A DNA stretch of 62,371 bases, filler included, from 19 parts of 19 records of this genome joined end to end with filler, not necessarily neighbours in it, one strand, 5' to 3'. Counted from the whole stretch's first letter, positions 1-59,128 are shown. Numbers and translations: made by a program. The notes: generated by a model from the letters alone, not told the origin.

Positions 1-790
1 TATCAGATTTATACAGAGTAGTTCCATCAGACTTCAAATCTGGTATTGTTTGAGATTCATTTTGTAGTCTCTTAACATGATTCCAAAATTTACTCAAAAA
101 TTCTTCTTCATTGCCAACTAGATGTCGCTCAAACGAAATATTCGCTTGACGATAATTGTACTTATAAATCTTGTTGGCCTTGTTAAAAGCTGTTTTGTCA
201 TCTGGAATTTTGGTTCTTTTAGCCCTTTTTTCTAAGGAATTGCAAAAATTGCGTTCTTTTCTGAGTTCAGGAGGCATAACAAAGGTACGATAATACTTTC
301 CTATGGCTATTCGTTTGACAGGTGTGCTACAGGTAAGGGCAATATTAACAGCATCTTTGAATCTATCCCAAACGTTATTCAGCACAAATCTGCTACAACC
401 AGGAATAACAAGTTGTGGCACATCTATGTCGAATAATAAAGAGGACAAGCACTTATTAAAATGGGGCCAATTTGTCTTCTTAAAAAGTGGAACCATTCTG
501 TATCGGGTCACAATGTTTCGAAAATGAATGGTACAGGTTATTAAATCATGATCAGTATTGATAAGTTCGTTATGATATGCTATCTTTGATACAGTATCTG
601 GCCTTTGAACACACAGCAGATCAAGCGTGTTCTTTAAATGCATGGGTTCTATAACAACATTTGACAAAAAGTATCTACTTAAGAAATTGTACAGAAGCAT
701 CGATGAAGTGGTAGGAAAATTAAAATTCTTCCAGTCACAATCAGGACTGTTGATATCTCCTCCAAACAAAATTTCACTATAATGATCCAG
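1..790 (-). mobile_element. Non-LTR retrotransposon (CR1/L2-like) ORF2 fragment: C-terminal half of APE endonuclease plus linker
   Basis: Minus-strand frame not in the ORF track reads ILFGGDINSPDCDW...VIEPMHLKNTLDLLCV...INTDHDLI...TNWPHF...KFWNHVK. This matches the GDxN, xTLDL and (S/T)DH endonuclease motifs and the LINE linker. Confidence 0.8.
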
Positions 791-876
791 TGGAGGTTTT
801 GGAATCGACTTTGGTGTGGGATCTGCTGTTGCTTCATCAATGTCTTCAGAAATTGAGTTTTTGATTCAAACCACTT

Positions 877-2374
877 TTGCTACTTTCACGAGTAACTACA
901 ATAGCAAAAGAAAAACAAGGGTTATGTTTAGCAATGTCACTCTCTCAAAAGCTGTCTCTCAGGCAGAAAGTACATGCAAGCATAATGCACGAAATCATGA
1001 AAGGTGCTGATAGTGTTGACAAGATTTTATCTTATCTTGATGGCATCTTGCTACAACCAGATTATGTACAAGAATATGAATCATTCGCTCACCTGAACCC
1101 ATTTACCAAAAGTCCTTCAATGACCATGGCTCAGTATGTCTTTACATTCGATGAAAGATACACAAATTTATCGGCTCATAAACTGACTATTCCTATGAAC
1201 ATTCTTTCTTTCATGCTTCTGGATAACTCTGGCTTGAACATGCCACAAAGACAACAGATTCTGATCAGCATGAATGATGGCACTAAAATTGAGAAAGATA
1301 AGATGTATGAATGAATGAAGGTTCTTCTCAAAGGATACTATGCTCCTAACATTCAAAGTCAAGCTTAGAGCCAAAAGTTCAAAGCAACTTCCGGATATGA
1401 GACAGTTAAAGGTATACTTACATCAACAGATGAGGAATCTCTTAGCCAACAATTATCTTCTTTGTCTACTGGCATGACAATGGAAGGTTAGGCATCAGGC
1501 ACGACATCTATATCTGTGAAAGTGGAACCAGTATCTACAATGTATGGATTTGATGATCAAGGTAATCCAATTGAAGCATATACTAACCAACACCAAGTGT
1601 ATTATGGTCAACGATTTCCAGGAAATTTTCGCACTCATCCTTTATATCCAGGAAATGTCCAGATATCACAAAATCGTCCATTTATAAACCAAAGCCAAGC
1701 ACCATTCCGAGGAAACTGGCAAAATCGTAGAAGAAGCAACTTCTACAGAATAGGACGTGGAAGTGTTATGCCTAGATATAATCCTATAAATATTCAAAGT
1801 GGCTTACGGTATTAGTGTTTCTCCTGTGGATCACCAGAGCACATGGATAAGAATTGTCCTAGTTACCAATATCGGCAAGGAATGAGACCAAGAATTATCC
1901 TAGTTACCAATATCGACAAGGAATGAGACCAAGAACTATGTTCTATTCCACAGATCATATTTCATTAGAACATGAGGCTTATCCAGATCAGCCAGAATAT
2001 GAAGTCGACAGTGCAGAATTTGATCCCATGGAACCATCAGAAAGCAGCTCAAATGTCCAAGAAAATTTCATCACTGAAACTGTCAAAGATTTGATGACAG
2101 ACGATGAAGATAGTGATAATGTGTTGCATACTTACGATGTCATGATGAGTGATGATGACAATGGTAACAATAACAATCAGCTGCTGCAGGAAATCAAAAA
2201 CCATGCTGTGATGGACTCAGGCTGTAACAATACCGTTTTAGGAGAAAAATGGTATCTGGCATATAAACAATCCTTATCCAAACATCTAAGAAAAAGAATT
2301 ACGAAATGGAAATCGAATGGAAGATATAAATTTGGAAGCAGAAAAACTTACCAAGCCAAGTGCAAGATGGTCAT
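877..2374 (+). mobile_element. Degenerate Ty1/copia-like (probably GalEa-type) LTR retrotransposon gag-protease remnant
   Basis: Gag-like KQGLCLAMSL...ILSFMLLDNSGL...MYE. CCHC knuckle CFSCGSPEHMDKNC at 1816-1857. Aspartic protease motif AVMDSGCNNTVLGEKW. In-frame stops at 1312, 1366, 1489 and 1813, plus one frameshift. Confidence 0.8.
1857..1938 (+). repeat. 41-bp tandem duplication inside the gag remnant
   Basis: tcctagttaccaatatcggcaaggaatgagaccaagaatta starts at 1857 and again at 1898 with two substitutions. Confidence 0.95.
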
Positions 2375-2474: not shown

Positions 2475-3149
2475 AATATTAATCAATGGTATAACATTCA
2501 GGGCATTGGTAGCTACTGTAAATAATGTTTCTGCCATGATGTGATCTTTATGTGCAAAAGTATTAATGTTCTCATAAATAATGAATTTTTTGTAATCTCT
2601 GTTTTGCAGTTCCTATAAAATTGTTAAGAGATTGCTTCATTTAAAGCAATATGAACTTGTGTACAGCAGATTATAGAGCATAATGATTATAATTTTTGTG
2701 CCTATAAATAATTATTTAAATACTATATAGTTGTGCCTGTATGGGCTTAAGCTATAATTCAATTCTGGTTTGTTAAACAAAATAAATTAATTGAAACTGT
2801 TTTCATAAGTTAGATTAAAATTAGATTATTAAAGTTAAATTCTTAAGTAGTAAACATTGAGTTAGTTTTAGTTTAAAATAATTCAAAAATTGATAAATTT
2901 AAGAACTAAAATCTGTTTAACTTAAACTCAAGAAAATAAATTAAATAAATTACAATTAAATTTTTAAAACCATTAAAATTTAAAATTTTAATAAAATATC
3001 AATAATATTTGAGTTAAAGTAAATTTATTAAAAAGTTAAAATTGAAATTGTTAATATTAAATGATAAGTTAAATAATTTCATAATAAAGTAAATCTAAAT
3101 AAATTTAGAATAATTTTCCCTTACTTTCATGTTTAAAGAGAACTACCAA

Positions 3150-4150
3150 GCTGCTTTCTGCAGGTAAATTATCCAACCCAAATAATAAGATATTAATTTT
3201 AGAGATTCTGTGTTTGGTGTAAGCTAAGAGAGCTATGCTACCATAAAGAAATTTTCCAGGGGTATCTTCAGATCAGCCTATGGCTAAAGTTATATAGTTG
3301 TTAAATTAAATTTCTTTAAAGAAGCTCTTCAAAAACCAGGTTTCAATAAATATTACAAAATTAAATTTTAATGCTAGAAGAAGGCTTTCTAATCTCTGCC
3401 TTCTAATGTAACCAATAAGACTTCTGCAATTGATTAGAACTGAGTGAATAGTGCAAGAGGTATATAGAGTAGGAATTTTAAGCATAGATTATTGTGAGAA
3501 AATGTTGACTAGAATTTGTAGATTAGTAGGTCTGTCCAGTTGGCATGGTTTAACTAGTTATTAATGTCTGTTATGTCTGCTACTGTCATCTAATCATCTA
3601 GTTTTCTTAATATGAGAGCCTGTATCTAATGAGTTTCTGAAAGATTGACTTTGTGAGGGCACTAAGTTATAACATTCTTGCTCCTTCTTCTTATCCAAAA
3701 ACTTATTGGCCATATCCACTAAAATCTTTGTTGTTTTACTATCAAACATGCCTAAAGATAAGTCATTACCAGAGTCTCTGCAACATCTTTTACCATTGGC
3801 ATTGTTTTCTCCATTGGCATTGTTTTCTTTGTTATCTCTGGCAGCAATCTTATTTCTTCTACTTTTGCATTCTCTGGTTTGAGTACTGTTCTTATGAAGA
3901 AAATTCACATCATTTAAGCTAGAAGAATCAATTACTACTTCAGTTAAAAAAAAATCTGAGAGCCCAAAACTACCCTATAAATAATTTGCTTAATATTTGA
4001 AAACCTAAAGATTTATGAAATTGATTCAGATCTATCACCAAAATCTTTGGTAAATAAGTGAACTTTACTATCTTCTTTGCAGGCCTTTTCATTTGACATC
4101 TTGGACAATTTCATTCAGAAAGCTCTTCTATTTCTAAATATAGTTTTAAG
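3150..4150 (-). mobile_element. Heavily decayed LINE-like remnant (possible ORF1 tail and endonuclease start)
   Basis: Minus-strand FVIFIETWF at about 3334-3360 resembles the APE ITETWL motif, followed by a YGSIALL-like segment. Many stops and frameshifts. Confidence 0.35.
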
Positions 4151-5108
4151 AATTCATGCAAATCAGAACTTACCATCTTCTCAGTTATAGGTATAGATAG
4201 TATCTTAAATTTGTCAAATACTTACTTATTTAATTTAATATATGTAACTTTACCTTAGAGCTGAAATCAATTTCATCTATGCTTTTATATGGCAGATTAT
4301 CCTCAAAATCCAAAACTTCAAATAACAACTCAATATTACCCTACAGTTAAAACATTTATTATTATTAATAAACGAAATAAAGTACTAATGTTATTTTTAC
4401 AAATTTGTTCAATTCTACATTCTTATAGCCTATCCAACAATCTAGTTTATAGATGTTTTTGGTATTTGTGCTCTTTAATTAAATTCACTACTTTTTCTTA
4501 ATATTTTTACTAAGATTTAACTACTAAGATCTTTCTGGTTTTATTACTATCCTAATAATAATTTTTTAATATATATATATATATATNNNNNNNNNNNNNN
4601 NNNNNNNNNNNNNNNNNNNNNNNNNNNNNNTTAATTAATTAANNNNNNNNNNNNNNNNNNNNNNNNNNNNNNNNNNNNNNNNNNNNAGATTTAAAAACTG
4701 AGTGAAAATTTATTAAATAAGTTTAAAATTAAGATTCATAGCATGTACACTTTAAAATTAATTAATAAATTTACATATGTAAAAGAAACCAGATGTCGTT
4801 ATTGTCATTCGTCTACAAGGGCTTGTAAAGGCTACCTATGTTTGAATAGATTGTAATAATAGCTTCCTATATTTATTAGCAACAACATTTCCTTATAATA
4901 AAAACTAAATTAGCAATTATGATACAAGGTCAAGTAAGCAAGAATGCATGATGAATGACCTCATCAAGAAAAATTGATTTTTACCCTTATGTTGTTTTAT
5001 TAATAATAATTATATTATATTTTAAGAGGCACTTTTGCTAGTTAGCCATAATTATTCTCAGTGATATCAATCTGCCATGTAGCAAAGTTGTTATTAATAA
5101 AAATTGGA

Positions 5109-6722
5109 ATGATGAAACCAAAATATGATGATATTATACAGAAAAATACTTGCAAATTTGGGGCATATCAAAAACTTTATGTTGGCCTCTTTTGTCTATT
5201 TGCAATACCACCATCATTTTTGAACATGAGTTTAGGCTTTACTGCCTATAAGCCAGAACACTATTGCCAATTTAGTGAGGAAGTTCTAAATATTGTTAGG
5301 TAAGTACCTCATTAAATATTCTTAATTTTAGTTATTGAAGTTAATAATATCCCATCTTATTTATTAAAATCAACTTTAAAATCAATTTTTAATTTTTAAA
5401 TATTTAAATAATTTTTAATTTTTGAATAATTTTTAAATAACTATTAACTAATCAAATATTAATATTTAAGTAAGTTTAAAGAAATTTTGAAATCTAAATT
5501 TTTTAAATTTTAAATATTTATTAAAATCAATTTTAAATTTTTATGAATAAAACTAGTTAACATAAATACTTCATTACTAAATCTTTATTAATTTAGGAAC
5601 AGATCCTGGAGATTAGATGAAGGAATGTATAAACTTATAACACCCCTCAAGGTTACTGGAAAACCAAATTCATGTTCTATGTTTGATTTGGAATATGGAA
5701 AGGTTTTCAGGTCATCTAGCAACATTGAAGAGGCTAATAAGTCAATAGAATTGTTGCTAAAAACTACTAATGTTGCGACAAAATGTCCTAATGGATGGAA
5801 ATACAACCATGATGTCAGAAAAGACAGCGCTGTTACTCAGGTAAAAATAAACAAAAAGTGACTATAAAAAATTTAATTTTGCATTTTTAATAATTTTTCA
5901 TAATTAGTAAGTAAGTTAAGAAAATTGACTATATAATAATTTGTATTTAAAATTATTTTTAATTTTATTTTTGAATTTTGTATTTAAAATTATTTTTGAA
6001 TTTTTTTCAAAATTATTAAAGTTCTAATATAAATTTGCATATGCATTATTGTTATTATAAAGAGTATCATCAATTATACATAATAAATTATTAAATTTCT
6101 AATAATGGTGTCATCACACTGAATACAAAAATAACATTGGAAAATAATGAATAAGCATATATGTAAATAGCAACATAATAATGACGTATCATGTAAACAG
6201 CAACATAATAATGTTATTGCAGTGGGACTTGGTTTGCTCCAAGGAATGGCTAGAAGCTCTCAATGTTGCCCTCAATTTTCTTGGAGTGATGCTTGGAGCT
6301 TTAATATGTGGCCATCTGGCAGACTGGTAATACTTGAATTGATGTTTATCAATTTAATTAATTTCTAGCATGATGACAGATTTCTCACTTATTATTAGGT
6401 ATGGAAGGAAAAGGGTTTTATTAGTTTGTACAATATCACAAGCAATGTTGGGTGCCATTGAAGGCTTGGCACCAAATCTGAACTCTTGGCTGGCCATGAG
6501 ATTTTGTAGTTCCATTGTTCTTATGGGACAGTTTGATACAGCATTTTCTCTATGCTTGGAAAATGTAGGCAAGGAATATAGGGCAATCCCTGGGATACTA
6601 CTATGCCTGGTTTGGGCTATTGGATACTTTCCACTAATCCTATTGGCCTATTTGATTAGAACAAGAATGTATTTGCAAATTACATTATCCTTGTGCTGTC
6701 TATGCTTTGTACCAATAATCCT
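5109..6722 (+). CDS. SLC22/organic cation transporter family MFS protein, 3'-partial (exons about 5109-5299, 5597-5840, 6223-6326, 6399-6722)
   Basis: KFGAYQK start, PEHYC, CPNGWKY, spliced TQ|WDLVC and ADW|YGRK, ENVGKEYRA. All junctions GT-AG and in phase. Confidence 0.92.
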
Positions 6723-7038
6723 GTATGTCTGACTTTCATAATTCTGTATAATAACCTAAACACTGAATTTGCCCAGATATAAACTAAGAAAACAGAAGTT
6801 ATTAACAATTATTATGGGAAAGTGGGAATTTGCCCTCTCATAAAAACCAAATAGATGTCACCNNNNNNNNNNNNNNNNNNNNNNNNNNNNNNNNNNNNNN
6901 NNNNNNTTAATTAATTAANNNNNNNNNNNNNNNNNNNNNNNNNNNNNNNNNNNNNNNNNNNNGCTCTCACTATTAATGAGAAATGTTACTCTCAAATCCT
7001 TACATTTTTTGTGTAACCCTGTTTTTTGTGCACCCTGT

Positions 7039-7143: not shown

Positions 7144-7393
7144 TGGTATTCAGTACGTACCTAATTATGGACCGGCTTACGGTAATTACGGAATTTTACG
7201 GTATGTGCGTAGTAGGCAATGCTACTAAGCACAAGTTGTGCTACACAACATAGTATGTTGAACATACATACCTAGGTACATAGACGCAGCGTGTATCAAG
7301 TGTGTGGTCGAATAATAGACGTTCTCTTTATTAAAGAGAAATATAATTATATTTGATGTCAGTTGTAGGATCATTCCAAAATTTGGAATCCAA

Positions 7394-8983
7394 ATGATCA
7401 GAATTGTTTTGTTTACATTCCTTCTCACTGTCGGCTTTTACGGAGTCGGCGCAACGTCGTCAGGTAAACAGTCAATCAGAACTTTGTTCGCTGGCTTAAA
7501 TATGAGATCACTTCTTCAAGAGACTATTGGATTAATGGAAGAGTTGACGCTGAGAAATCATGAAATTTTTTATCTAATCGAAGAACATAGGATGGATGAC
7601 CTGAAGTACATTAAAGATATAGTTCCAAGCCTGAAATTTCTCACGTATAAGTCGTCAAATGTGCTAGATATTGATAGCAAAACATTGACAAGTTTGGTCG
7701 GAAAGGACGGTTCAGTTTCGGACAAAATGAAAAGCCACATTATTCCACTAATGGACGAATTTTGCAAAGATTTTGTTTCCAATGAAGATTTATTTCTAAA
7801 CATTCCAAAGCAAACTAAATTTGATATAATTATTTATACAGATGTTCCCTTTGTATTATGCTATTACATATGGTTTTATCATCTTGGTACAAAATGGATA
7901 TATTTAAGTACATATTACCCATATAATTTTGCAAGAATTCCAGTTTTCCCATCGTTTGCACCAAGTCAAACTTTATTTGATTTACCCTCAGAGTATCCAA
8001 TGTCTTTTATGAGCAGGGTTAAAAATTTTGCATTATTTTTTGTTGATGCTCAATACATGTTCTCAAACTGGATGCTCGATTTTCAGGGGTATAGAGAACA
8101 TGCCCTAAACAAATCCTATCCCACTTCAGTCAAAGAGTTGGTTCAATCTGCTGAACTTTTTCTGATTAACATGGATCCCATTATGGATTACCCCAGACCA
8201 ACGATGCCCAACGTTATTTTTGTTGGTGGAATCCACATTCCCAAAAGTAAACCAATAGTTGGTGATGGAAAGGTTACCCAGTTTCTTGATGTGAAGAAAA
8301 AGGGTATTATTGTTATGGCTTTGGGAAGTATCATGGAATCGATGCCATATGAAATGTACGTGAAATTTGCTGAAGCATTTAATACGTTCCCAGAATATAG
8401 AATTATCTGGAAAAATAAGATAGCTTTTGAAAATGTAACGCTAAAGGATCATATTTTGATGATGCCATGGATTCACCAAAATGATTTGTTGGCTTTGCCA
8501 GAAACTCGGTTATTTGTAACACATTGTGGTAATAAGGGTACGTATGAAGCATTATTCCATGGTGTACCAATGATTGGTTTCCCCCTGATTGGTGATCAAT
8601 TGTATAACTGTGCCAGGTTAAGAAATAGAAAGTTTGGCCTTGTTCTTGACATTAGCTCTTTCGTGAGTTCAGAACTGATTTCGAAAATGAAGGAAGCATT
8701 AGCGCCATCTTTTAGCGAAAAAATTAGAAAAGCTGCTGAATTTGTTGCAGATCTTCCTCCTCCTTCTTCTACTGCTGCAGATTGGATAGAAATTGTTGCT
8801 AAACATGGTGGAACGCTATTGAGACCAACAGCTGCGTACGAATTGTCGTGGTTACAATTTTATTGCGTTGATATAATAACTTTTATACTATTTTCGATAA
8901 TGGCAATTTTAATGATACTTTTTTACTCTTTAAAATGGATTAAAAACAAGTTTTGCAAGAAAGACAAGCAGAAGACTGCTTGA
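7394..8983 (+). CDS. UDP-glycosyltransferase (GT1, UGT-like), intronless, 529 aa
   Basis: Signal peptide; DYPRPTMPNVIFVGG; signature WIHQNDLL...FVTHCG...EALFHGVPMIGFPLIGDQ; C-terminal TM helix and Lys-rich tail KKDKQKTA. Confidence 0.96.
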   Translation: MIRIVLFTFLLTVGFYGVGATSSGKQSIRTLFAGLNMRSLLQETIGLMEELTLRNHEIFYLIEEHRMDDLKYIKDIVPSLKFLTYKSSNVLDIDSKTLTSLVGKDGSVSDKMKSHIIPLMDEFCKDFVSNEDLFLNIPKQTKFDIIIYTDVPFVLCYYIWFYHLGTKWIYLSTYYPYNFARIPVFPSFAPSQTLFDLPSEYPMSFMSRVKNFALFFVDAQYMFSNWMLDFQGYREHALNKSYPTSVKELVQSAELFLINMDPIMDYPRPTMPNVIFVGGIHIPKSKPIVGDGKVTQFLDVKKKGIIVMALGSIMESMPYEMYVKFAEAFNTFPEYRIIWKNKIAFENVTLKDHILMMPWIHQNDLLALPETRLFVTHCGNKGTYEALFHGVPMIGFPLIGDQLYNCARLRNRKFGLVLDISSFVSSELISKMKEALAPSFSEKIRKAAEFVADLPPPSSTAADWIEIVAKHGGTLLRPTAAYELSWLQFYCVDIITFILFSIMAILMILFYSLKWIKNKFCKKDKQKTA

Positions 8984-9332
8984 ATTATGTTATTAGATTA
9001 TATTTGTTATTAATNNNNNNNNNNNNNNNNNNNNNNNNNNNNNNNNNNNNNNNNNNNNTTAATTAATTAANNNNNNNNNNNNNNNNNNNNNNNNNNNNNN
9101 NNNNNNNNNNNNNNTATTGTTATTATTATTAATAATAATAAATGCATGTATAATTACATGTACTATATATGTACTTTATTTTTGTAAGACAGCTGTTGGT
9201 AATGGTATACTAAAGCAAGTCTTGCTGAATCTTATATGCTTGCAGTATTACCAATAATAGTAAGCTTAAAAAATATTTCCTTGATTTTTAGAAATTTTTG
9301 ACTTCAAAGCATATTTTTATCTATCCAGACAA

Positions 9333-10331
9333 ATGGTGCATTTCAAATTTACTTTGTCAAATTTTCATTTGAAATTCTTATTATTAATAGCGACTGTCAT
9401 ACCAATTAATGAATTCATTGCAAATGGACTAACTTGCTATTCTTGTGTTAATAGCCATGATAATGAAATGTGTAATACAAACACAGTTTTATGTGAAGAA
9501 GATCATGATACATGCTTCACAGTGGTTCATTGGTCAAGTAAGTGTTTCTAATAATATAGTATTATATTAACTAATGTTTATGCTCATAACTCAATAGCAG
9601 TAAGGTTTTATGGTGACCTCTATATATTGCTGGATAAACTGTTCTTTCTATTATTAATTTACATGTTCAGTCTTATTGATTTACATTTGTTCCTTCTACT
9701 TTCATCATGGATATCACCAGGCGACATCTGTTTCCAATAATATTTACACACCTGGAATGTATAATGTGTGGTTCACAGCTTCATAAATTTCTACAGTAAA
9801 TTTCAGTTGGTAGTGGGACATTTTTTAATAAAAACCTAAATATTTTCTGGAGAGCGTTTTTGCACCTAGCTCAATTAGAAATATCCATTATAAAAAATTT
9901 TCAACAATTTTTAAATTTTTTGTAAAATTTCAAAAAATATTTTTAAGATACTCTAAACAGTACCTAGTTATCATTATATCATTTAAATGCATTATCTTTA
10001 TAACATGCATTGTCTTGGCATAGATATTGCTTCAAAACATACCATCTCTAAGAAGTGCACAAATTGGATATCTTGCAATAATCAAATTAATGCAACAGAT
10101 CCAGATAGATATGAAATTAAAACTAATGACAATGAAAAAGATAAATTATACTCTCATATAGTCTGTGATAAAAGTTTACCTGAATGGCAATGTAGTTACT
10201 GCTGCAAAGAAGATAACTGTAATATGAATTCATCGTTAAAAGCAAGTCCACTATATCTTAATAGTGTTCAATTATTTCTACAAGAAGCATTCTCAGTTAC
10301 AGTTATATTCTGTACAATACAGCTACTATAA
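9333..10331 (+). CDS. Ly6/uPAR (LU, three-finger) protein, probably GPI-anchored (exons 9333-9537, 10024-10331)
   Basis: Signal peptide, LTCYSC start, KKC, terminal CCxxDNCN motif, hydrophobic tail. Phase-1 GT-AG intron joins the two ORFs. Confidence 0.88.
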
Positions 10332-12459: not shown

Positions 12460-14889
<2,430 letters not shown>

Positions 14890-19843: not shown

Positions 19844-20832
19844 AAAATAATTTCAAAGTAACAAATCATGGTATCAAATTACCATTAATGGTATCAAAGT
19901 TGTTATTATTTACATCATTGTAAAACTAATTTCACTGACAAATTGTCAGTGACAATATTGTTTTAATTTCATCATACATGTATGCATAACTGCAGTTACA
20001 ACTACGTTATGCCTGAACTAATATACACTATATGATATTGTCATAATACCACTTCACATTATGAGGCTCATAATATTATGGATCCAATAATATTAAATAA
20101 TACTGTGACAATTCGATCTCATATATAAAGAAAATATATTTCAAGTTGACTATATCAATGAAGTAAAATCTCTTGATTATATTTCAGTTTCTGTTAGGCT
20201 TTCTGTAAACCATTTACTAAATAGCAATGTTTATTGGTAATATCACATTTGATTACTCACCATGATCCCAATAAACTTCATATGTAATTGTAGTTTACTT
20301 ATAGTTTATTCTATATAATATAGACTATATTTATAAGCAGTTTATTATAAACACTACTAATGGAGAATTTCTCTCTGTGCCAAAGTCTTTTTTTATTAAT
20401 TAATAATAATGAAGTTTTGAAGCTTCACCAAATGATTTCATCGAACTTTAACTATAATTAATCACCTGTATCGCATTTGAAAGCCCTAAAATTCTTTTTA
20501 TGTATTACATGTAGATGTCGCCTTTTGATGAAAAAGATATAGTAAATGGAATATCCTTAAAGATGCATTTTTTCAAATTTGGGGCCATTTTGCAAGAAAA
20601 CAAGATTTGATGGAACAAAATGGTGTGCATTTTCGAATTCAGCGTACTCGAGTTGACTTATTAAATTCAATACTTACTTTGTTGTACAGTGTAATTAATT
20701 GTTTTAAGACTTTACTTATTTTTGCCTTACTTNNNNNNNNNNNNNNNNNNNNNNNNNNNNNNNNNNNNNNNNNNNNTTAATTAATTAANNNNNNNNNNNN
20801 NNNNNNNNNNNNNNNNNNNNNNNNNNNNNNNN

Positions 20833-23800
20833 ACTTAGGTCCATTAGTACCAGAGCTAGAACTCCAACAAACGCATATCTAAAACAGATGTTAATAACTG
20901 AAATATTTGAAAATTTGAATTTCAAATGTTACCTTTGTCCAGGAGAACTCCTCCAAGTCTTGTCAGAACTATCCTCTAAACATCTCAGAATGCAGATGAC
21001 AAAATGCTTCTGACTAAGCAAGCTCTTGAAATGGCTCATACAAGACCGCAAATGGTCATCCAGGGCTCCATTCTGATTCTGCAAATTTTATGTGATTATT
21101 ACAATATATTGTACTTAATAATAATAATCTTGTAATTTAATAGGAAGTAATTCCTTTTCAACCTGAAAATGAGACAATGTTTGCTAGAAAAATTACGATT
21201 AATCTCTCTCAATCCCAGTTTAATAAGGAACTCTATGAGCAATTATAATCTTATGAGTAAGCATCATACATAAGGAGATTCACACAAATCAGGCATCGTT
21301 GAGAATAAATGAGATCCAATAGTATTGCCACTATGTGGATTCATGAAGGTTTCATATTCCTGCATAAAACAGACTTTGTAGCAAAATGTCTTGTAAGTCA
21401 TGACTGGTGCAACCATTGCACAAATTCGTTCAATTTCAGCGTTGGTTAAAAAATTGGATCCTTTAGTGTGTGTTTCGTAAAATGCTATCAAAAATAGCGA
21501 CATCTTTACAACTTTGTTTTAATAACATTTATATTAAAATCAGTTATCAAGTATCACCTACCATTTCTAGCTTCTCTACTAGCAACTTCGCCAACGACAT
21601 CCAACTCCTTTTGAACGCGTAGGAATTTGTTTTTCAATTTTTTTGTTTTTCTGCGACTGAACAAGTGCAAAATAAAAAACACCATCAAAGTACTAAAGAG
21701 CAAAATAACAACGATGCAAACAATTATAACAATTGTTATTGCTGGGGTTTTCCTGGCTTTTACAGGTTCAGCTTTGGCTGATATAATGGTTTTTCCCACA
21801 AACTTTAAATTATTGCTTGAATTCCTGTACAAGGCAACAAAAACGTCAACAAGCCGTGGTTCATCCGCATCAACAAGCGTTGAAGACGCTGGCAAATTAC
21901 AAACAATCATTGTAGTTGTGAAAGTGTTAATCCAACAAGAAATCGGTGGCTCTAGTTTGACAAATATTTCCTTTTTGTTAATTGCTTCAAAGTCCATATG
22001 GTCCACAGCAATTAACAATGTTCCACCTAATGCAGACAGATTTCTGGACAATACAAATGTTGGGTCAGGTTTTACAATAACGGTTCTGGAAAATTTCACT
22101 TTGGCTGTCATGGTGTCAGTGGACAGATTTGCAGATGCTGTCCAACCAAATGTTAAATCAAGCTTTTTTTCCGTAGGCAATGATCGTTTTACCAAACCTG
22201 ATGATGACAGTGGCAAATGTGGAAAGCTGCAAACAGCCGCAGAGTCGTTTAAAATTTGACAAGCTGTTCCTGGTGTCTACAAGATATCAACTTTAGTAAT
22301 AACAGTTACAACAAATTCCTACATGAATTTCAAAATATACCTTAACATTGGTGTAGAATGCAAAAAAATTGTCAACTATATCAAGGTTCTGTCCAAGAAC
22401 AAGCATTGATCGACCACCACTGAAAAAGATTTTACAGGTTTAAAATAATTTAAAGTATTTTAAAAATATTAAAAAATATAAAAGTTCAAAATATTAAAAA
22501 TACTTTAAAACGCTTCAATTCAATTTAAAATTCATATACAATTTAAAATTTGTTACTTTTTAAACTGTTATATATCATTTAAAAAATTTTGGTACATTTG
22601 TGCATTTCATTATAAGTTTATATTATTAATATTTATATTATTAATTAGTATATTAATAATGGTATATTTAATTTTGAATAAAAATATGAAGTTTAGTTCG
22701 AAAACCTTGAAAATGAAATGGAAGGTTCAAAATCGGATACAATAGGGTCATCCACCAAAGATAATGATGGCTTCAAAAGTAGGTAATCATCTAAGGTAAC
22801 ATTGTCAAGTTTCATCTTTAAACCTATTTGACCAGGAAATCCTTCCGTTGCCTTTTCAGCAACACAGTTTAAATGGGTGGAATTTCTGTCAAAGCTTATG
22901 CAATTTATCTGCTTTTCACCAAAACATATAATAGGGTTTAATTTATTACCAACATCCAAATTGCTACCATTTATCATAACAGACACTTGACCAGACACTG
23001 GATATGTAAGTCGTGAAATGTCTGACAAAGTTGGCTTCTAAAGGCACAATGTTTTTTAACTATTACATTTTGTGAAAAAACTATGAAAATTACCGTTATG
23101 TTCAAATTGGAAAAATGGACCACCTCATTTTTTCGATCATAAAAAGTCATACGAAGACCAACTTGTTGATTTTCCTTCGGGACTTGTAACATGCTGTTCA
23201 CATCAACCACACAAGATATTCTAAAATAAGCGTGTATGTAAAGCGTACGTAACGACAAAGTTCTGTTTCTGATTAGTAAATTCAAAAAATGTTACTTGTT
23301 ATGGGTGTGATTTAGAAGTCTACACTCCACAGGAGGTGGTGACAGCGATATTCTTTCTATAGCTTCTGATCTGCTGCCAAATTCTTCACCATAGATAGTT
23401 AATACAGTACCACCATATGGAGAAATTTTCTTTGGAAGAACCGATGTTATTTTCGGAGGTGGACACGAAGAAGACTCGTAATAACAATTAGAAATGCAAT
23501 CACTTTGAAAGATACATTGATTATTCGACCAAATGCAATGGTATTCTTCAAAAGAGTAACACTGAGAACAACTTTGAGCCATTTGGGAACAATTGTACAA
23601 CAAAACTAAAATTATGAATACGTAATAAAATAATTTTTTGAATAATAATTACTTGATTTGGATCCATCAATTCTAGCGCCATTTCTATTCATTAACTTTA
23701 CAGATGCTTCAAAATTATTTTTCCCATTAAAGCGAGTCAAGTCCAACTAAAGCATGATTCATTTACATAATTGGAAACGAACGTTTGGTATCAGCTAATT

Positions 23801-26800
23801 TACATACTATGCAAACAAATTGCCCAGCATCTTTATCGCACTCAAATTTCTCACTCTCAACCAACGTAAACCAGCCTTTTCCTTGTAGTCCAATTTTCTA
23901 CAAATAGATGGGGACATTGTTAGCGCGTGCCAGAAATCGATCAATATATTTGAATGCTTATTCATTTAACCTCATGATTGTCCACATTCAATTCAATTGT
24001 TACAACATGACCAATTGCCGCTTTGTCCTGCGAAGCAGATTGAATCGTCGGACACTCCTAGAGTCAAACAAGGAAAAAATTACATGTCATGGTCAGGAAA
24101 ATACTTCCTACTTATTGCACAATGTAACAATAATTACAAGTTTGATTTTTGAGTTGATAACACTAATTGCATAATTGGGTGGGGAATTATATGGCAAAGG
24201 GCGTACTTATTACGTCAACCTAATGTTATTAAGTTCAAAAGTTGACAGAAAACACGCGGCACTTACCTTTCTCTCATTAATGACAGTCAAACATGTGTTT
24301 GCAACCACGTCTTTTGAAGCGCAAAGACCCTCATTTGGGCACCAGTTACAGCCCCATTCGCTCAGCATGCAATCTGAACAGCTTGAAAAGTAACTGCAAT
24401 TGTAGAAGGTGATCTTGGAAGTATAGAAACTCCACTTGTTTTCATAAATTAAAGTCATATTGGTGTCTGCAAAATTACGCATGTATGTTTTGAATGAAAA
24501 CAGCCAACTTTGCCCACTTACCAAAGTGATCATCATCTACTTCAGCTGCTCCTTCTGCTGCATTTGCAGAAGTGGCATCGATTTTGTTGGGTTTACTAAT
24601 CTCAACGGAAAACCTTCCATCAACATCATATTGTAACTGACTAACAATGCAATCGAGCCCTCTACCAACTTTACATGAAACTTTTTCCGTTAAACTTTTT
24701 ACAACGACACGACTGGAGAATTTCATATGCATCTACAAATGGCAATGTTTACTATTTTTACGAGCAACAGCTGGACAAAATCGTTGAAATGAAGTTATTA
24801 TATTTGCTGGACATGACCTTTTTAAAATTGTCCAAACACTTGTATTTGTTTTCTGATTGGTTTTTAAATGGAGCGTTTTCAGCACGGAAGATTGTACAAT
24901 ATTAATCATCGTAATGTTTATTATGTGTAATTTGAAAATGCACTTACAATATTTAACTGCTTTTCTAGTGGGAATAACGCAATCTGTTCTTGCTGGACTG
25001 ATGGGCAAACAGAAGGATTAAAAAGGGTGGAAACCCTCCCAGTTAACTCATGCTTATTACATTGTTTAGCGCTGTCATTTGCGTAAGTGCATCTAAAGAT
25101 GAGCAAATGATGTATTTTTCATCAAAAAAAATTGTAGGCGTTATTAACCTAGGCTGAAGAGTGCACCAAGCACAAAATGGGTTCTGGATGCAAGTGTTAC
25201 AATCTTCATGAAGTTCACATTGGGCTAGAGGCATGGAAAATATCTAAAAAACACATGTTATTCAGGAGAAGGGAGATGAAATACAAATAGGGAGTTGTCT
25301 TGGCTCATAGCAGAGGACTGATTTTGGTAAACCATTACCAAGCTGGTAATACCATCAAGCCCCTGATTATAAGCTTAACATATTAATAAGCCTATTGTTA
25401 ACTAAAAATGAAGTGTGTACCTAAAATTAATAGATTCATATTTTATATAAATAAATTTAAAATTAATATTTAAATTTAAAAAAATATTTTATATAAACAA
25501 TACAGTTTCAAACTTTGAATAAATTAGTTCAAATTGATATTCAACATTTTAATAAAAAAAATAGAATTTTTAAATAATTTAATAATTAAATTTCATGTTA
25601 AATTTAGTAAATTTATATTAGTAAGTAATGCATGTTTTACTATATATTAAAAGCATCATGCATTAATTTAAATTGTTATTATTGTATTGCCAGAACTTTT
25701 ACTAATTACAAAGAATAACACAGAAGTGCACTTCTTGCTCCTAATTGGTAATGCAAGGAAAAGCTGATTATATAAAAACTTGCAAACTAATTAAGTGCTA
25801 AGTGAACTAATTAGGAAGTACACACTATTGACCCACCTTGTTTGTAATTGATGCAAGAATTCTGCCATCAACTATTTCCAGATGTGACACCATATCTCCT
25901 TTGCTACTGCTGTTATGGTTGTTCCAAGCACCAAATTTTGCCATCTTTCCCTGTCCACCAGCAAACTGCACATACTAAGCATGCATAAATCAATATACAC
26001 TATACGTATAACGTACATGGTGAATTAAATTCCGCAGAGAGCTTGATTCAATTAAGATGAAAACATGCGGTTTTTAAACTATTTATCCCTAAGCAAGCGT
26101 AAGTTGTATATCTATAGTAGTATTCCAAATATCAAAAGCATTAGGACTTAATAAGATATTCAATACAAAGTTAACTACCTTTGCCTGGCTACTTACCTTC
26201 TGAATTAATCCGTTTTTGAAGCCAACTACAATAACTGAGAATCTATCAAAGGTTTTCAACACTATAGAGGTCACTTCATTTTGCGGATCAAGATCTTCAA
26301 TGATGATAGAAGGATTAACGTCTTTAATGAAACCTCCAAAGATCGGTAACTCTAGCATTTTATTAAACTCCAAGTGACATCCGAAATGCTGCCTGAAATA
26401 TTTGGAACTTTCTGCCACTTTTTCCTAAAAAATAAAAACGATGGAAACTCAGTGACATCTACTGGCAAAATTGCTTAAGAACGCTCATGTTATTGATATG
26501 TATTTCTACAACTGTCAGTGTTGTTAATAATAACTTAATGCAAATTATGAAACTTTATAGCATTACCACATTAATTATGATAAGTGATATAAATGATAAA
26601 TACACACAAGAAATAACTAGTATTGTACATACTGGACCCAGTACTCCAAAAGGTCCACCACATGTCCGGCTGCTCGCGGCTTTTAGATAATCGAATTCAT
26701 CATTGATAGTTACTCCTTGCCTTTCTTTAAGGCATCTTAAAAATTGATCATAAAAAATATTCTCCCAATCACTCATATTGAGTACAGCTATAGCAGGGCC

Positions 26801-29542: not shown

Positions 29543-29543
29543 G

Positions 29544-52518: not shown

Positions 52519-53549
52519 TCACAAATTGCCACTATCTATATTGTTGTTACTAATAATGTTTGTGGAGGTTGGATAATAAGGAAAACATAAATCTAAAAAA
52601 TACAAAAAAAGTCCAAAAGCAGTATAAATTTTTGTCTATGTTATTATTATTAATAATAACATAGACAAGTTACCTATTTCACATATGAAGGATTTTTTCT
52701 GCGTGCAAGAGTTTGATTTAAAACCAAATTTAAGATTTTGAAAGTTAAAAAATGATCCGCAATGTTCTCCATACAGCCAAGGATCATCTAGTATAATAAA
52801 TAATACTGCAACATTCATAGAGTAGTAATATGATAGTACTACGTAACAATTGTTATTATTAATATATTAATAACACATTATTATAATATCACATAAAATA
52901 ATTAGATTATTGTTGATATGAATGATATCTACATGTCTGAAACATGTAGGCAGCGGCTGTACTGATAGTTGATAACCGACTATTGTAGTACCTGTCGAAA
53001 AGGGCAAGATGTACTCGCTTTGGGCGTAAACCATAGACATAATAGCCTGCCTATGTCTATGGCGTAAACATGTGCGACATCTGTTACCTTTGTCAAGCTC
53101 ATGACTAATTATATAAATGGAAATATGTTGTTTAACGATATAATAAGGCCTACATAATTGCATATGTTAGGCTCATTATAACATGTACCTTCAATGAAGG
53201 ACACTTTGTTTTTCATTCGATCTCCGTTATACCATATTATGTTATTAGGGTATGGAATGTATAGTCCAATATGAAAATCATAGTCGCTAAAAATAGGCAG
53301 TTAGGTTAGTAGTGTTGGCAATATCTATATTAGGTTTAGAAATTGAGTTTTACTTAATAATATCCTGTTTGAGAAAGAAATCAAGTTCTGCTTTGGATGC
53401 GACAGTAGCTAAATGGCCAACTTCAAATACTTCGCAAAATTTTTTTGCTTCATTCCATGTCTTGGGTTCATAGAAAATTTTAAAACAAGAACTTTTACGA
53501 AAGGTTTGGTATCCTTCAGGACAGTCTTTAATGCAGCTGAATGACCTAC
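52519..53549 (-). CDS. C-type lectin domain protein, 5'-partial (exons 53354-53549, 53189-53286, 52674-52787, 52519-52592)
   Basis: CPEGY...SCFK...TWNEAKKFC...GHLATV, FHIGL, EHC, CTQKKSFICE. No EPN/QPD or WND motif. Confidence 0.85.
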
Positions 53550-53710
53550 CTAAACGTACTTCTTAATTGTTTTAAGGTTTTATATTATATTATATAATAT
53601 AATTTATATANNNNNNNNNNNNNNNNNNNNNNNNNNNNNNNNNNNNNNNNNNNNTTAATTAATTAANNNNNNNNNNNNNNNNNNNNNNNNNNNNNNNNNN
53701 NNNNNNNNNN

Positions 53711-55372
53711 ACCTTTGGGGGTGTTTGAGTGCACGTGCCCAGATGGGTATTTTTGGGATACAACATTACATGGTTGTGTGAATTCGTCAATTGCTTGCAC
53801 AGAAGAGGAAGTTTGGGATTATGATAAAGGAACTTGCGTTTTGGTAGAAAATGCAACATTTGGTGGAAATTATTCCTGGGGTATATAATTTTTGGTAGAA
53901 ATTTCTTCAGAAATGAATTTGGTAATTTTAGTTTGTGAAGATTATGACCCAGCAAGGTACATCCAGCAACACCCTGCAGATCCTGAAAAGTTTATCGTAT
54001 GTGCTCCATCTGGGGCATTTGAATACAGTTGCCCAGATGGGTATCATTGGGATACGAAATTGTATGCTTGCGTGGATCCATCAATTACTTGTACAGGAGA
54101 GAAGATTTGGAATTATGATATTGGAACATGTACCTTACCTGGAGAGGATGTACATGATATTGCAGAATCATTTCCATGTAAATGTTTATTTTTAACTTAC
54201 AATTATCTTACTAAATTTAATTTTTAAATTTTTATTCTTATTAATAATAAATAATACCTTTTATAATATAAGTTATATATCTTTATTACTAGTTAAAATA
54301 TAATAATAGCTGTCATAATTTTTATTTTGATTAATAAATTAGAATATTATCCTTAAAAGAATTAATAATTTGTAAAGTTGTAAAGTTATTATATACATTA
54401 AGTTATGATTCTCTATTAAATTTTTTAATTTAACTGTAATTTTAATACTATTAAAATTAATATAATTACTAATACTATTAATTTACTAAATTTAGCTTTA
54501 TTAATTATAAATTAAATGTTGGAGATCATTTTTAATTCAATTATCTAAGCTACAACTTTGCTATAACACTTTAGATTTTCAATGCAATTCCCATGGATAT
54601 TACCACCATCTTTTTAACCAAGATAAGTACTATTTTTGTTCTTGGGATTGGTCTGAAGATGGCTCGACGTATGAAGTACATTCCTGTCCTCCTGGTACCA
54701 TATTTTGTCCATCTCCACTGGCTTTAAGTCCTTTTCCTAGTGAGGAGTGCGCGACTTCTTGTCAGTACCAAGTTCTGGTGGATGAACAAGGTGAGCTAAA
54801 TATAAATTTACTACAAATTTATCCCGCTTTATTATAACGGTGTGAAATCAGAGCTAATTGGCGACATCTGCCCCGGTTTATAAAAAATATAAACTTGCCA
54901 TAAAAGTTTCAAACATTTTGATTTAGCACTTACTGTCACTTTCTAATATTGTCAATAAATTCAATCTTTTTGGCGACATCTACCTAGGGATATGAATGAT
55001 TTAGGTTTCCTACAAGAATAACCAAAATCTTGTTTACTAGAATATACAGCTTTCTAACATTGTCCAATTCGATCATATAGGCGACATCTGCCTAGGTATA
55101 TAAATGATCTAGATATGCCAAAAATGTTGGCAACAATGAAAAGTATGTGCAAGCGGCAATAATTTACTATATGTTTAGGCACATTATGCAGCCAGCATGG
55201 GGTGGGTATTTGTACTGATTACCCAAGTAGTGATTTTACCTATTTATGCCATTGGAATCAAGGATTAGTTGAAAGTAATTTGGTTCTTGGTGGATGGATA
55301 ATCTACAAATTTGATGATTGTGATGCTTGTTGTGGGTATGGAGCATATCAAACGGCGACATCTTCATCCTAA
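53711..55372 (+). CDS. Cys-rich repeat protein with chitin-binding type-2 (CBM14)-like modules, 5'-partial (exons about 53711-53880, 53932-54177, 54575-54791, 55179-55372)
   Basis: Repeated CPDGY(F/H)WD...CV and HPADPEKFIVC; GYYHH...KYYFC...HSCPPGTIF. One module per exon, phase-1 introns. Confidence 0.7.
54860..55120 (+). repeat. Degenerate about 110-bp intronic tandem repeat, each unit starting GGCGACATCT
   Basis: Motif at 54860, 54972 and 55080; ctttctaa(t/c)attgtc recurs before units 2 and 3. Confidence 0.75.
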
Positions 55373-55758: not shown

Positions 55759-55925
55759 ATGACAACCGAGGGTTATCGAAGCGATTATGAAACTGCTCCA
55801 CCAGACCATCAAAAACCCAAATCAAAAACTCCAACAAAGCTGATTCATTATCCTTCCAGAGAAAGCAGATTTGTCAGTGAAATTATACCAAATTTGCTCC
55901 TGGGCAACCTGCATTTTGCCGCAAA
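55759..55925 (+). CDS. Probable dual-specificity phosphatase, N-terminus only
   Basis: VSEIIPNLLLGN...AA is the typical DSPc domain start. Cut by the contig end. Confidence 0.55.
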
Positions 55926-56824
55926 NNNNNNNNNNNNNNNNNNNNNNNNNNNNNNNNNNNNNNNNNNNNTTAATTAATTAANNNNNNNNNNNNNNNNNNN
56001 NNNNNNNNNNNNNNNNNNNNNNNNNTATTAATAATAATATCATATTATTAATATGAATTGACAATACAGTATTGTAAATAAAGTAAACAAATACTTTGTA
56101 TACTTTGTTTATTATTATTAACAAATAAATATCAAATTACAATGAATAAACAATCCCTAATATAAAATCACAAAAATAAAATAACTTATTTTAAATAAGC
56201 AATATAATAATAAATTTTCATAAACATAATAACTTTTAATATAATATGTATAATAGTAATAGTTGTTATAAATTATATTACATATTAATTATACATAATA
56301 TTCATTTTAAAATTTAATAATCTTCTAAATTAGAAGTTCCAATTTTATAAATGTTTAACATTTACAGTTATAGGCTATAACTTATAGCTATAATTTAATA
56401 TTTCATAATAATTAGAAATTCTGTTAAAACCAAATATTAATAATAAAGTTAATTATTAATAACTTTTTTATATTATTAAACAAGAATTTTTTTCAATACT
56501 ATTATTAATAGTATGTATTACCAATTAATGCTAAATTTAATATTAATAGCAATACTAAATTACTAATAATATTTTATAAGAAATATTATTAATTTATTGC
56601 TACTAATAAACATTTGCACCTTGATCTGTCAAAGTCATTACCCTTTTTACTAATCATCGGCGTCTAAATTATAGACTCCATAATCATTATTATAGCAGCT
56701 AGACTGGAGTGATAACGATAACTCTTACAACAAATTCTTAAGATCATTTAAAAATGGATAATAACACTCAACAAATTAAATTTCTGCGAAAAATATCACA
56801 CATAAAATTAATCTGTCACATCTT

Positions 56825-59128
56825 CTACCAAGCAACTGAATGGCAAACACCACAAGCAATATTGTTTATTCCTCTACCTAAAAATTATTCTCCAGTCATT
56901 TACATATCAAATTATTAAAAGCAACAATTGCGCCAAAAACATGCTCCAAAAACACCAGCACATTTCGTAGTAAAAAAGTGCTCCCACCTCAACCTGAAAT
57001 TTAAACCATAAGAAAATCAACAAAAAAGAAATTCAATTAAATCCTGTGGGGAAATATAAATTAAAATGTCGCCAGATGTCGCCTATGAACCCTGGAACAA
57101 TATTGCAATAAATGGTTTTTCTAATAATATATGTGGTGATGACAAATTATGTGAAAAATATTTAATAATGATTATTTATTATTTTTTACATATATTAAAA
57201 AATATGGATTTACTATGGAAAAATCTATTATAATTTTTCCCTATGGGATTTTGTATGATAAAATTTACCTTATGGGAATCCCATAGGGGCAAAACTAGTA
57301 TGAATTCAACCATAAAAATTTATTTCCTTAAAATTAATGAAAGTTTGCTATACATTACTATTATAAAGCGCATGAAATTTAGCTTCCACCTTATGGTTCA
57401 TAGGCGACATCTTTTCTATTTTTCTTACACAGCTGTATTTTAGACCATTTTGTGATAGGATTTCTATGTTACATTTTCACTGAAAACTTATCATGTGAGG
57501 TGGGGGCCTTTTTCACTAAATTAACTAATAACTCTTTGGTCATGTACTTGTCAAAAATGTTTACAAGAATGGGACTTATTTTGACAAAAATTTGAAAGCT
57601 AATTTCTGGCACATCGTTACTAATAATGTATGTATGTACATACCACTTAAATCTTGTAGTTCCTTGGGCCATGGAGAACAAGGTTCTTCACCTAATCCTA
57701 ACTGCCCATATATATTTGTTCCCCAACCAAATATCTTTCCTAAGACAACAATATCACTAATAACAGTGCATAACAGTGAACAACAAAAATATAAAGTAAA
57801 ACATATTCAAATATTAAATTTGATAATAATAATAATAATGTATAAATAACTCATTGAAACTCTTTAACATTTATTTATATATTAATAATAATATTTAAAA
57901 AAAGTAATAATAATTTTTAATACATATCATAATATTATTACATACATTAATTTAATAGTTATAATTACACTAATTATTGATAATAAACTTTTTACATAAT
58001 AGATATATTAATTAATTAGTTGTAATAAATAACAAATTTAGTTTACAACTACTATACTTTTTTATGAAATATTCCAAAAAGTTAATATCAAAATGATTAT
58101 CAAAATTTTTTAAATTATCATCAAAATATAAAATCATACCTTGATCAGTCAATGCAAGGCAATGACTTGTCGCCACAGAAATAGAGACAACTTTTTCACC
58201 CCCAAATCCTTCCACCAGGATAGGCTCATTTACTGACTCTTGAGAACCATTGCCTAAATAAAACTTATCGCCTTTTCCCCAAGCAAAAACCTTCCCTGCC
58301 TTATTCAAAGCAATAGTAAATGCAGATCCACATTCAACTTGTACTATTTCTTCATCACAAAATGCATCAATTTTGACAAAATTTAAACAACTTCCAACAC
58401 CCTCGGAATGCCCCAATTGTCCATCGCAATTTTTACCAACTGACCAAAGGTCATTATCACTTGTTATACAATAAATGTTCCCATTTCCACAAGTTACAAG
58501 TTTTATGGTAGAATTCTTGAAAAAATCAACAATTTTTGGCTTTTGAACATTTTCTTGATCTCCATGACACAATTGGCCAAACATTCCACAACCCCAAGTT
58601 AAGAGGGTCCCTGGGTCAACTATACAGGCACTATTTCTTTCCCCAGCAGAAATATCTGTGACGATTTGTCCCTTTAGAGATTTGATTAATCTTGGATCTT
58701 TTGCAGATTTTGAGGGCAAAATCTTTGAAACAGATCTTCCCAATTCACCATGATTGTTGAATCCCCATGAAAAAACTTGATGTTCAGAAGTTAAAGCAAG
58801 ACAATGGGCTGACCATGCTGTCGGACCAATGGATACTTTGATAATGCTATGCTCGTTTAACGAAGTTATTGGAGTCGGAAATAATGACATGTATTTGGAG
58901 TTTTTACCAAAGATTTCATCGTTTGATGGCTTTCCAAAACCGCATATGAAAACTTTGCCTTCATCGGAGATGATAAATGTACAGTAAAAACCGATGGTAA
59001 CTTTTCTGGGCTTTAAATCTGACAAAGCAGAACATTTCAAAGGCGTTTTCGTTGACGGAACATCAGCAATTAATTCGGTATCTGGTCCGGAACCCCAAAC
59101 CCAAACGTTCATGTCCTTCGTACTCGTT
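56825..59128 (-). CDS. RCC1-repeat beta-propeller protein resembling a HERC2 RLD (exons 58140-59128, 57644-57739, 56825-56877)
   Basis: HCLALT..VFSWG.N.HGELG, LLTWG.G.FGQL.HG, VECGSAFTIAL...VFAWGKGD; spliced end GKIFGWGTNIYGQLG...IACGVCHSVAW-stop. Confidence 0.9.

Follow-up and report, generated by a model that had tools for sequence, protein, structure and literature searches.

The DNA word RGCGACATCT, usually GGCGACATCT, is a real, free-standing word of 10–11 bp, and we propose, with a probability of roughly 0.45, that it is the site of a putative host zinc-finger-type protein and has been spread partly by small repeats. The stretch of DNA analysed, referred to here as the window, has 62,371 nucleotides and consists of 19 contigs of 2–7 kb each, with spacers of the form N44-TTAATTAATTAA-N44; its GC content is approximately 30%, as previously stated in a sequence-only reading of the same DNA.

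Enrichment and sequence profile

That reading had claimed an over-represented word with 12 exact copies, and every one was found again at the same position and on the same strand. The claim holds, with 12 occurrences of GCGACATCT in 60.5 kb compared with 0.09 expected from 100 dinucleotide-preserving shuffles (at most one copy in any shuffle) and 0.17 under an order-3 Markov model. The ten-letter form GGCGACATCT occurs eight times (0.03 expected), and of the words with at least five occurrences, none of 8, 9 or 10 letters is more enriched than this one. Exact copies are spread over eight of the 19 contigs, which are unrelated to one another, and the 29 sites with at most one mismatch (4.63 expected) over 15. 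The density is thus approximately one word per 5,000 bases of AT-rich sequence, a figure that becomes an extrapolation when it is applied genome-wide, because the sample is 60.5 kb only.

The six one-off variants reported earlier are real, and 11 more belong to the set with at most one mismatch (1501, 3780, 8702, 17141, 33512, 38927, 54751, 57064, 60383, 61084 and 61307). The change falls at positions 1–4 in 13 of these 17, including ACG three times, GTG four times and GCGCC twice, and the CATCT part is seldom altered (4/17), which would be the graded profile expected for a binding site. The proportion of 12 exact to 17 one-off copies is sharper than in most sets of transcription-factor sites and is typical of young copies. 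In an alignment of 15 sites the information content sums to approximately 17 bits; the informative part spans 10–11 bp, and the flanks beyond it add no information. A literature search on the word and its sub-words, at the level of titles, yielded no published description of the motif, one match that was followed up proving to be a primer. We also considered metagenome loci with two copies of GGCGACATCT 90–120 bp apart, but these 120 loci, with a median GC content of 0.58 and none below 0.39, were rejected as prokaryote background.

Repeats that carry the word

An all-against-all blastn comparison of ±200 bp around 21 sites, together with a comparison of nine site regions with the window, gave no common MITE or SINE consensus, the sole matches between flanks being those within a tandem array and an 18-bp inverted pair. 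Apart from three local structures, the ±200-bp flanks have no common alignment, in agreement with the earlier view of a short, free-standing motif rather than one repeat family. The same comparison had been suggested as a means of telling a binding motif from a MITE or SINE, and its outcome is divided: the lack of a common consensus favours the motif, but seven of the 12 exact copies do lie in small repeats, namely a diverged tandem array of approximately 110-bp units, a perfect 18-bp inverted pair and a hairpin module found on two contigs. One additional exact copy (120..128, minus strand) lies in an endonuclease/reverse transcriptase-like ORF (2-865, minus strand) of a non-LTR retrotransposon fragment, where a weak 9-bp hairpin adjoins it.

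The array (54838..55170, plus strand), downstream of CBM14 exons and in the sense orientation, consists of three diverged units with GGCGACATCT at 54861, 54973 and 55081, and the statement that three copies share one tandem repeat is thus borne out. After the word, these units have RCCYMGG, which reads CCTAGG in two of them. Outside the word the units are only 52–58% identical, and of the 117 alignment columns 46 are invariant; no run of invariant columns is longer than the 10-bp word itself, the next one being 3 bp, and column shuffling gave P = 0.003 for a run of at least 10. With the one-off variant at 54751 and the exact copy GGCGACATCT at 55355..55363 (plus strand), which lies at the end of an ORF (55163-55369), five copies in one orientation fall within 610 bp (54751-55363).

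The inverted pair (57064-57412) is a perfect 18-bp repeat with the word at its outer end. Its left arm, AGATGTCGCCTATGAACC (57064..57091, minus strand), holds the exact copy at 57074 with a one-off copy, GCGACATTT (57064), directly against it, and its right arm, GGTTCATAGGCGACATCT (57395..57412, plus strand), 303 bp from the left arm, contains the exact copy at 57404 and lies downstream of the RCC1 exons of a minus-strand gene. No target-site duplication was seen at this pair, and the copies outside it have no inverted partner within their short contigs.

The third structure is a perfect 21-bp hairpin formed by TCATAGACATAATAAGGAGGT and its complement (13561..13613; −20 kcal/mol, z −8.1), 12 bp from the exact copy at 13541. 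The CATAGACATAATA arm of this hairpin recurs beside the copy at 53074, where the hairpin CCATAGACATA/TATGTCTATGG (53031-53062, plus strand) is followed 11 bp later by the word (53074-53082). A hairpin followed by a CTRR terminus is the pattern of a Helitron 3′ end, but this candidate was dropped, the terminus being inconsistent across copies.

Genic context

Seven copies (9721, 53074, 54861, 54973, 55081, 57074 and 57404) are non-coding and lie beside Pfam-supported exons for Ly6, C-type lectin, CBM14 and RCC1 domains. The copy at 9721..9729 (plus strand; GGCGACATCT) is 170 bp downstream of the Ly6 exon ORF (9285-9548, plus strand) and is probably intronic, in a contig with a CpG observed/expected ratio of 0.23; the copy at 53074..53082 (plus strand) is downstream of, and antisense to, the C-type lectin exon (53353-53562, minus strand). 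The copy at 13541..13549 (minus strand) lies antisense to the gene in an intron of approximately 295 bp in PGM, placed by tblastn between exons 13122-13469 and 13762-14202; the PGM introns next to it are 61–62 bp long. Eight of the 12 exact copies had previously been called intronic, which stands for 13541 and may hold for the other seven, each placed beside an exon on one side. A further copy (21497..21505, plus strand) lies 52 bp downstream of the exon ORF of a plexin-like transmembrane protein (21557-22276, minus strand), antisense to the gene, and another (20513..20521, minus strand; GGCGACATCT) is non-coding, lies in a CpG-poor contig (observed/expected ratio 0.37) and has 19 of 21 bases in common with the copy at 55355. 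Relative to their host genes, seven copies are sense, four antisense and one of unknown orientation, and the use of both strands fits an action on DNA rather than on RNA. As to the genes themselves, the best matches of the PGM exons, 70–75% identical, were to molluscs, annelids and hemichordates; the UGT in the window is at most 37% identical to any match, and RCC1 has distant matches only.

CpG retention

The word contains a CpG and had been described as kept in spite of it, which the distribution of CpGs supports. In the four contigs that make up the CpG-poor set, 4 of 30 CpGs lie within RCGACATCT, compared with 11 of 869 elsewhere (Fisher p = 0.001). Word density is 0.42 per kb in these contigs and 0.22 per kb elsewhere, whereas CpGs other than those of the word are approximately six-fold rarer in the CpG-poor contigs; had the word decayed like other CpGs, 0.33 copies would be expected there instead of the four found (P = 0.0004). 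The variant ACGACATCT at 4791..4799 (minus strand), which occurs also at 1501 (plus strand) and 18317 (plus strand), keeps one of only five CpGs in a contig with an observed/expected ratio of 0.13. The change of CpG to TpG is seen in the variant GTGACATCT, at 26452..26460 (plus strand), 6853 (minus strand), 50519 (minus strand) and 52488 (plus strand). A CpG island at the sites was rejected, because the flanks equal the background in both GC content (0.297 versus 0.309) and CpG (1.6 versus 1.8 per 120 bp). Recent insertion alone could account for the intact CpGs; taken together with the invariance of the word in the diverged array, however, their survival may be read as signs of constraint.

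Comparison with known binding sites

The sequence-only reading had taken the sites to be bound by a CTCF-like zinc-finger protein, here considered as the organism's CTCF orthologue, with shifted specificity. There is some likeness: the word has an AGRKGGCRS-like stretch with a CpG, is abundant and occurs in either orientation, and AGATGTCGC matches eight of the nine positions of the AGRKGGCRS part of the consensus CCASYAGRKGGCRS, as printed in PMC6746451. At up to two mismatches the full 14-mer has six matches in the window (1.5 expected), three of which overlap motif sites, and the CCASY module occurs with at most one mismatch at three of the 29 sites (0.6 expected, P = 0.02), one of them an exact copy of the 12. 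The CTCF consensus is best matched by the variant at 26452, whose minus strand reads CCAGTAGATGTCAC. However, no site matches the 14-bp core exactly, 26 of the 29 sites have no CCASY half, only the 3′ part of the consensus is fitted, the word has T at the invariant G of the consensus, and no information extends past 10–11 bp, where a CTCF core has at least 14. CTCF sites are also far sparser than one per 5 kb. Judged on these matches, the word is not a canonical CTCF site, its resemblance to CTCF being no better than that to YY1 or hDRE, and we consider binding by a CTCF orthologue quite improbable. Of the wider background, CTCF binding is methylation-sensitive (a title in the reference list of PMC6746451; PMC12221973), and operon gene arrangement has been tied to CTCF loss in nematodes by Heger et al. 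(PMC2749850).

An ACAT-type YY1 site and one hDRE half-site appear to fit about as well as the CTCF core. Like the YY1/Pho site CGCCATNTT of the ACAT core type (PMC3429435, citing Yant et al. 1995), the word has CG, then the ACAT core, then C and T (CGACAT is present in all 12 exact copies), its length suits four fingers, and a CpG lies inside the site; binding of YY1 is methylation-sensitive (PMC1904287; PMC3429435). Position 8 of CGCCATNTT is T in 12/12 exact copies, but position 9, where YY1 is reported to need T (PMC1904287), is T in only 4/12. The DNA-binding domain of YY1 is reported to be nearly invariant (PMC1904287; PMC3429435), and a shift to ACAT only would therefore need a paralogue. 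Canonical CGCCATNTT is not enriched in the window (two occurrences, 0.96 expected). Clusters of YY1 sites are known from intronic tandem repeats of imprinted genes.

The hDRE, TGTCG(C/T)GA(C/T)A, is the site of ZBED1/DREF, and BEAF-32 binds CGATA; DREF and BEAF act at boundaries and housekeeping genes (PMC7471704). The GCGACA of the word equals one half of the hDRE palindrome, and the ATCA found upstream of 6 of the 12 exact copies (uncorrected p = 1e-4) could be a second, spaced half-site. Unlike hDRE, the word has no central TCG(C/T)GA, and C precedes GCGAC in none of the 12 copies; CGCGACATCT does not occur in the window. The sites of the word are, moreover, intragenic, whereas hDRE/DRE are promoter elements.

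Discussion

The main rival to a host protein site is that the word is a transposase-binding terminal or subterminal motif of non-autonomous DNA transposons, in several MITE-like families that would have only the motif in common, the copies being young insertions without host function. Such elements might leave a structure like the perfect 18-bp pair, whose arms are 303 bp apart and have the word outermost, with a further partial copy adjoining; the five same-orientation copies in 610 bp resemble clusters of subterminal repeats; the CATAGACATAATA module stands 11–12 bp upstream of two copies on different contigs; and the motif-bearing PGM intron is long beside its neighbours, as after an insertion. 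That exact copies are so numerous relative to variants, and that the CpGs are intact, would both fit a young age, and the hDRE likeness is to the site of a BED-finger protein, BED fingers being derived from hAT transposases. Against this, the pair lacks a visible target-site duplication, the flanks do not recur at other places in the window, where no transposase gene was seen either, and the exact copies at 9721, 20513, 21497 and 55355 each lack a partner, a hairpin and a shared flank. In the tandem array, in addition, the carrier has decayed and the word is untouched, which neutral decay after insertion does not predict. We regard this explanation as somewhat unlikely.

That the word acts in RNA, as an intronic splicing or processing signal, or is an assembly or adapter artefact, is hardly credible. 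AG precedes five of the 12 copies, resembling a splice acceptor, and one variant (6853-6861) is terminal in its contig, but of the 11 copies whose host gene is known, 4 lie antisense to that gene, and Rfam and tRNA scans found nothing at the motif sites. The copies lie deep within contigs with unique flanks, and an adapter or vector remnant was rejected, because no more than 9–10 bases, inside unique sequence, are common to the copies.

A protein-binding site remains the best reading of the word, as a prediction. Under the proposal of a host site, a short zinc-finger-type reader would recognize the word sequence-specifically; the bound protein would keep the CpG of the word unmethylated, or selection would keep the word intact; new copies would be seeded partly by small repeats, such as the tandem array, the inverted pair and the hairpin module; and sites inside genes may act as architectural or regulatory anchors, like those of CTCF, YY1, DREF/BEAF and the ctenophore CTEP proteins. 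The window encodes no candidate binding protein, its only zinc-finger gene being a KLF.

The closest counterparts may be the loop anchors described in PMC12221973: in ctenophores, lineage-specific zinc-finger proteins bind unmethylated, CpG-bearing motifs that are mostly intronic; in placozoans, the anchors are marked by a motif carried in the TIR of a Mutator transposon; and 69% of the enhancers contacted by looping promoters are intronic. The word, like the CTEP1/CTEP2 and placozoan motifs, bears a CpG. In contrast to the word, the motif of ctenophores is rich in GC and contains two CpGs, and the CTEP proteins are restricted to ctenophores, whereas the present host is a protostome. The mir-8 in the window is of what we take to be the protostome type. 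As a speculation by analogy, and an unlikely one in its full form, an under-sampled protostome might have its own dense, CTCF-independent architectural system, in which a zinc-finger or BED-type reader would bind GGCGACATCT approximately every 5 kb inside genes, at sites seeded by repeats, kept unmethylated and retained, in parallel with the CTEP system of ctenophores and the TIR-motif system of placozoans.

Were the word a transposon end only, the finding would be ordinary. Lineage-specific chromatin organizers with short, methylation-sensitive motifs have been found outside vertebrates and flies only recently; if the proposal is true, a little-sampled protostome would have such a system, marked by the dense word, and the case would show small repeats seeding regulatory sites.

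Occurrence and form of the word

Every result here is based on 60.5 kb, the window consisting of 19 contigs of 2–7 kb separated by spacers of the form N44-TTAATTAATTAA-N44 (60 571 real bases; GC approximately 30%). The 9-mer GCGACATCT, referred to here as the word, occurs 12 times, at the places where the sequence-only reading had located it, and its over-representation was upheld: shuffling gave 0.09 copies, with a maximum of one in any shuffle, and an order-3 Markov model predicted 0.17. When up to one mismatch was allowed, 29 sites were found against 4.63 expected, and the word was the top-enriched 8-, 9- and 10-mer among words occurring at least five times. The ten-letter form GGCGACATCT is present at eight of the 12 (expected 0.03); copies are found in eight of the 19 contigs, at about one per 5 kb.

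Information in the aligned sites is limited to some 10–11 positions. At -1, 8 of 15 sites carry G, and at -4, 11 of 15 carry A; no C occurs at +1. Thirteen of the 17 one-off variants are changed at positions 1–4, including ACG (three times), GTG (four times) and GCGCC (twice), and the CATCT part is seldom changed (4 of 17). GTGACATCT, the product expected from CpG decay, was seen four times against 0.37 expected. ATCA lies at most 16 bp upstream of six of the 12 exact copies (background 0.077 per site), a marginal result, because its P value of 1e-4 is uncorrected and approximately 1300 words were tried.

The proposal that eight of the 12 copies are intronic held only in part; one, in PGM, is proven, lying between the exon end at 13469 and the exon start at 13762, while the other seven can be placed only in noncoding DNA adjoining Pfam-supported exons. 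Relative to the host gene, seven copies are sense, four antisense and one undecided. Such mixed orientation fits a word that works on DNA, not RNA. An RNA signal, or an artefact, can be given hardly any weight as its explanation.

Genes and source organism

The animal genes in the window are an intron-less UGT, PGM, plexin-like, KLF, Ly6, C-type lectin, CBM14, RCC1, Alg14, GRASP55/65 and CFAP20, accompanied by two non-LTR retrotransposon fragments with endonuclease domains (2–865 and 15688–17849, both on the minus strand), which are two different fragments that share only 26% identity over 104 residues. The UGT (7319–8980, plus strand) is a complete, 554-residue open frame and the RCC1-repeat exon (58015–59187, minus strand) encodes 391 residues, also without introns; together with PGM introns of 61 bp, they point to a compact gene structure. 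The best identities of the PGM exon, 70–75%, are to mollusc, annelid and hemichordate proteins, and no match to the UGT exceeds 37% identity. A mir-8/mir-200 precursor at 40953–41031 on the minus strand (Rfam, 53.6 bits against a gathering score of 47) marks the source organism as a bilaterian; its mature arm, TAATACTGTCAGGTAAAGATGTC, reads as the protostome form.

The CpG observed/expected ratio per contig ranges from 0.03 to 1.21. Depletion is mosaic, with ratios of 0.03–0.37 in the four contigs at 2475–4586, 4687–6862, 9115–11458 and 17906–20732, 1.21 in that at 30901–33333 and 0.46–0.79 in the remainder, which suggests patchy germline DNA methylation.

A second word, the palindrome TACCTAGGTA, is also over-represented, with exact copies at 7269–7278, 12128–12137 and 43696–43705 and, at up to one mismatch, 12 sites against 1.7 expected; near-copies lie at 31254, 43973, 44142, 54981, 55089, 59267 and 59386. 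Its copies occur in GTAC-rich stretches that lie directly upstream of the minus-strand unit in contig 13 and of the points at which the UGT, PGM and RCC1 coding sequences begin, and it may be a promoter element.

Repeats around the copies

The statement that the flanks differ was confirmed: apart from three local exceptions, no shared flanks were found by all-against-all blastn (±200 bp, 21 sites) or by a blastn search of the whole window with nine site regions, and, as judged from these alignments, the word is not a single repeat family. Small repeat structures nevertheless hold seven of the 12 copies, and a retrotransposon one more (copy 120, inside its ORF). Three copies lie in a diverged tandem array of units of approximately 110 bp (54838–55170), in two of whose three units GGCGACATCT is followed by RCCTAGG. 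A perfect 18-bp inverted repeat, whose arms are 303 bp apart, has copies 57074 and 57404 at its outer ends; a partial copy of the word adjoins the left arm, and no target duplication was seen at this repeat. Midway between the arms, at 57234–57293, is another inverted repeat of 12–17 bp (CCCTATGGGATT/AATCCCATAGGG). Copies 13541 and 53074, on different contigs, each have a CATAGACATA(ATA)...TATGTCTATG hairpin 11–12 bp upstream, that in the PGM intron being strong (-20 kcal/mol, z -8.1). Adjoining it, TACTTACTCGCAATAATTG is repeated three times in tandem (13628–13685). This intron, of approximately 295 bp, looks like a short intron plus an insertion, its neighbours in PGM measuring 61–62 bp. Four copies stand alone (9721, 20513, 21497 and 55355), two of them matching at 19 of 21 bases.

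Signs of constraint and possible binding proteins

Outside the word, the array units are 52–58% identical to each other, and 46 of the 117 alignment columns are invariant. Only one long stretch is invariant, the 10-bp word itself; the next longest run is 3 bp (P = 0.003 for a run of at least 10, by column shuffling). In the four CpG-poor contigs, 4 of 30 CpGs fall in RCGACATCT, compared with 11 of 869 in the others (Fisher P = 0.001), and the density of the word is 0.42 per kb compared with 0.22 per kb elsewhere, although other CpGs are some six-fold rarer there; four copies were present against 0.33 expected (P = 0.0004). The flanks showed no CpG island (GC 0.297 against 0.309; 1.6 against 1.8 CpGs per 120 bp). 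The CpG-survival and density results could also be explained by young insertions, but the array invariance argues against youth of the copies as the sole cause. The main rival explanation, which we consider rather unlikely, is a transposase-binding end motif without a host role; the four readings weighed here leave some probability unassigned.

The label of a CTCF site of shifted specificity, given to the word on the sequence alone, was not borne out. AGATGTCGC agrees at eight of nine positions with the 3' part of the CTCF consensus CCASYAGRKGGCRS, as printed in PMC6746451, but the CCASY half, at up to one mismatch, accompanies only 3 of the 29 sites (0.6 expected); we consider this identity very improbable. 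The word can also be read as CG + ACAT + C + T, ACAT being a core type recognized by YY1 (PMC3429435, citing Yant 1995), whose consensus is CGCCATNTT and whose binding is methylation-sensitive and whose DNA-binding domain is nearly invariant (PMC1904287). However, the position-9 T is absent from 8 of the 12 copies, and the canonical YY1 form was not enriched in the window (2 against 0.96 expected). Of the hDRE site, TGTCG(C/T)GA(C/T)A (PMC7471704), the word has one half, GCGACA, but the central TCGCGA is in none of its copies. The word qualifies as none of these three site types.

Functionally, the word comes closest to two motifs described in PMC12221973, one being CTEP1/2 of ctenophores and the other the loop-anchor motif of placozoans. 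The former contains a CpG and is bound in the unmethylated state, among enhancers that looping promoters contact in ctenophores 69% are intronic, and the placozoan motif is carried by Mutator TIRs (PMC12221973). For the word, the best reading, to which we give a probability of roughly 0.45, is a putative site of a host DNA-binding protein: small repeats would have seeded part of the copies, which would afterwards have been retained.
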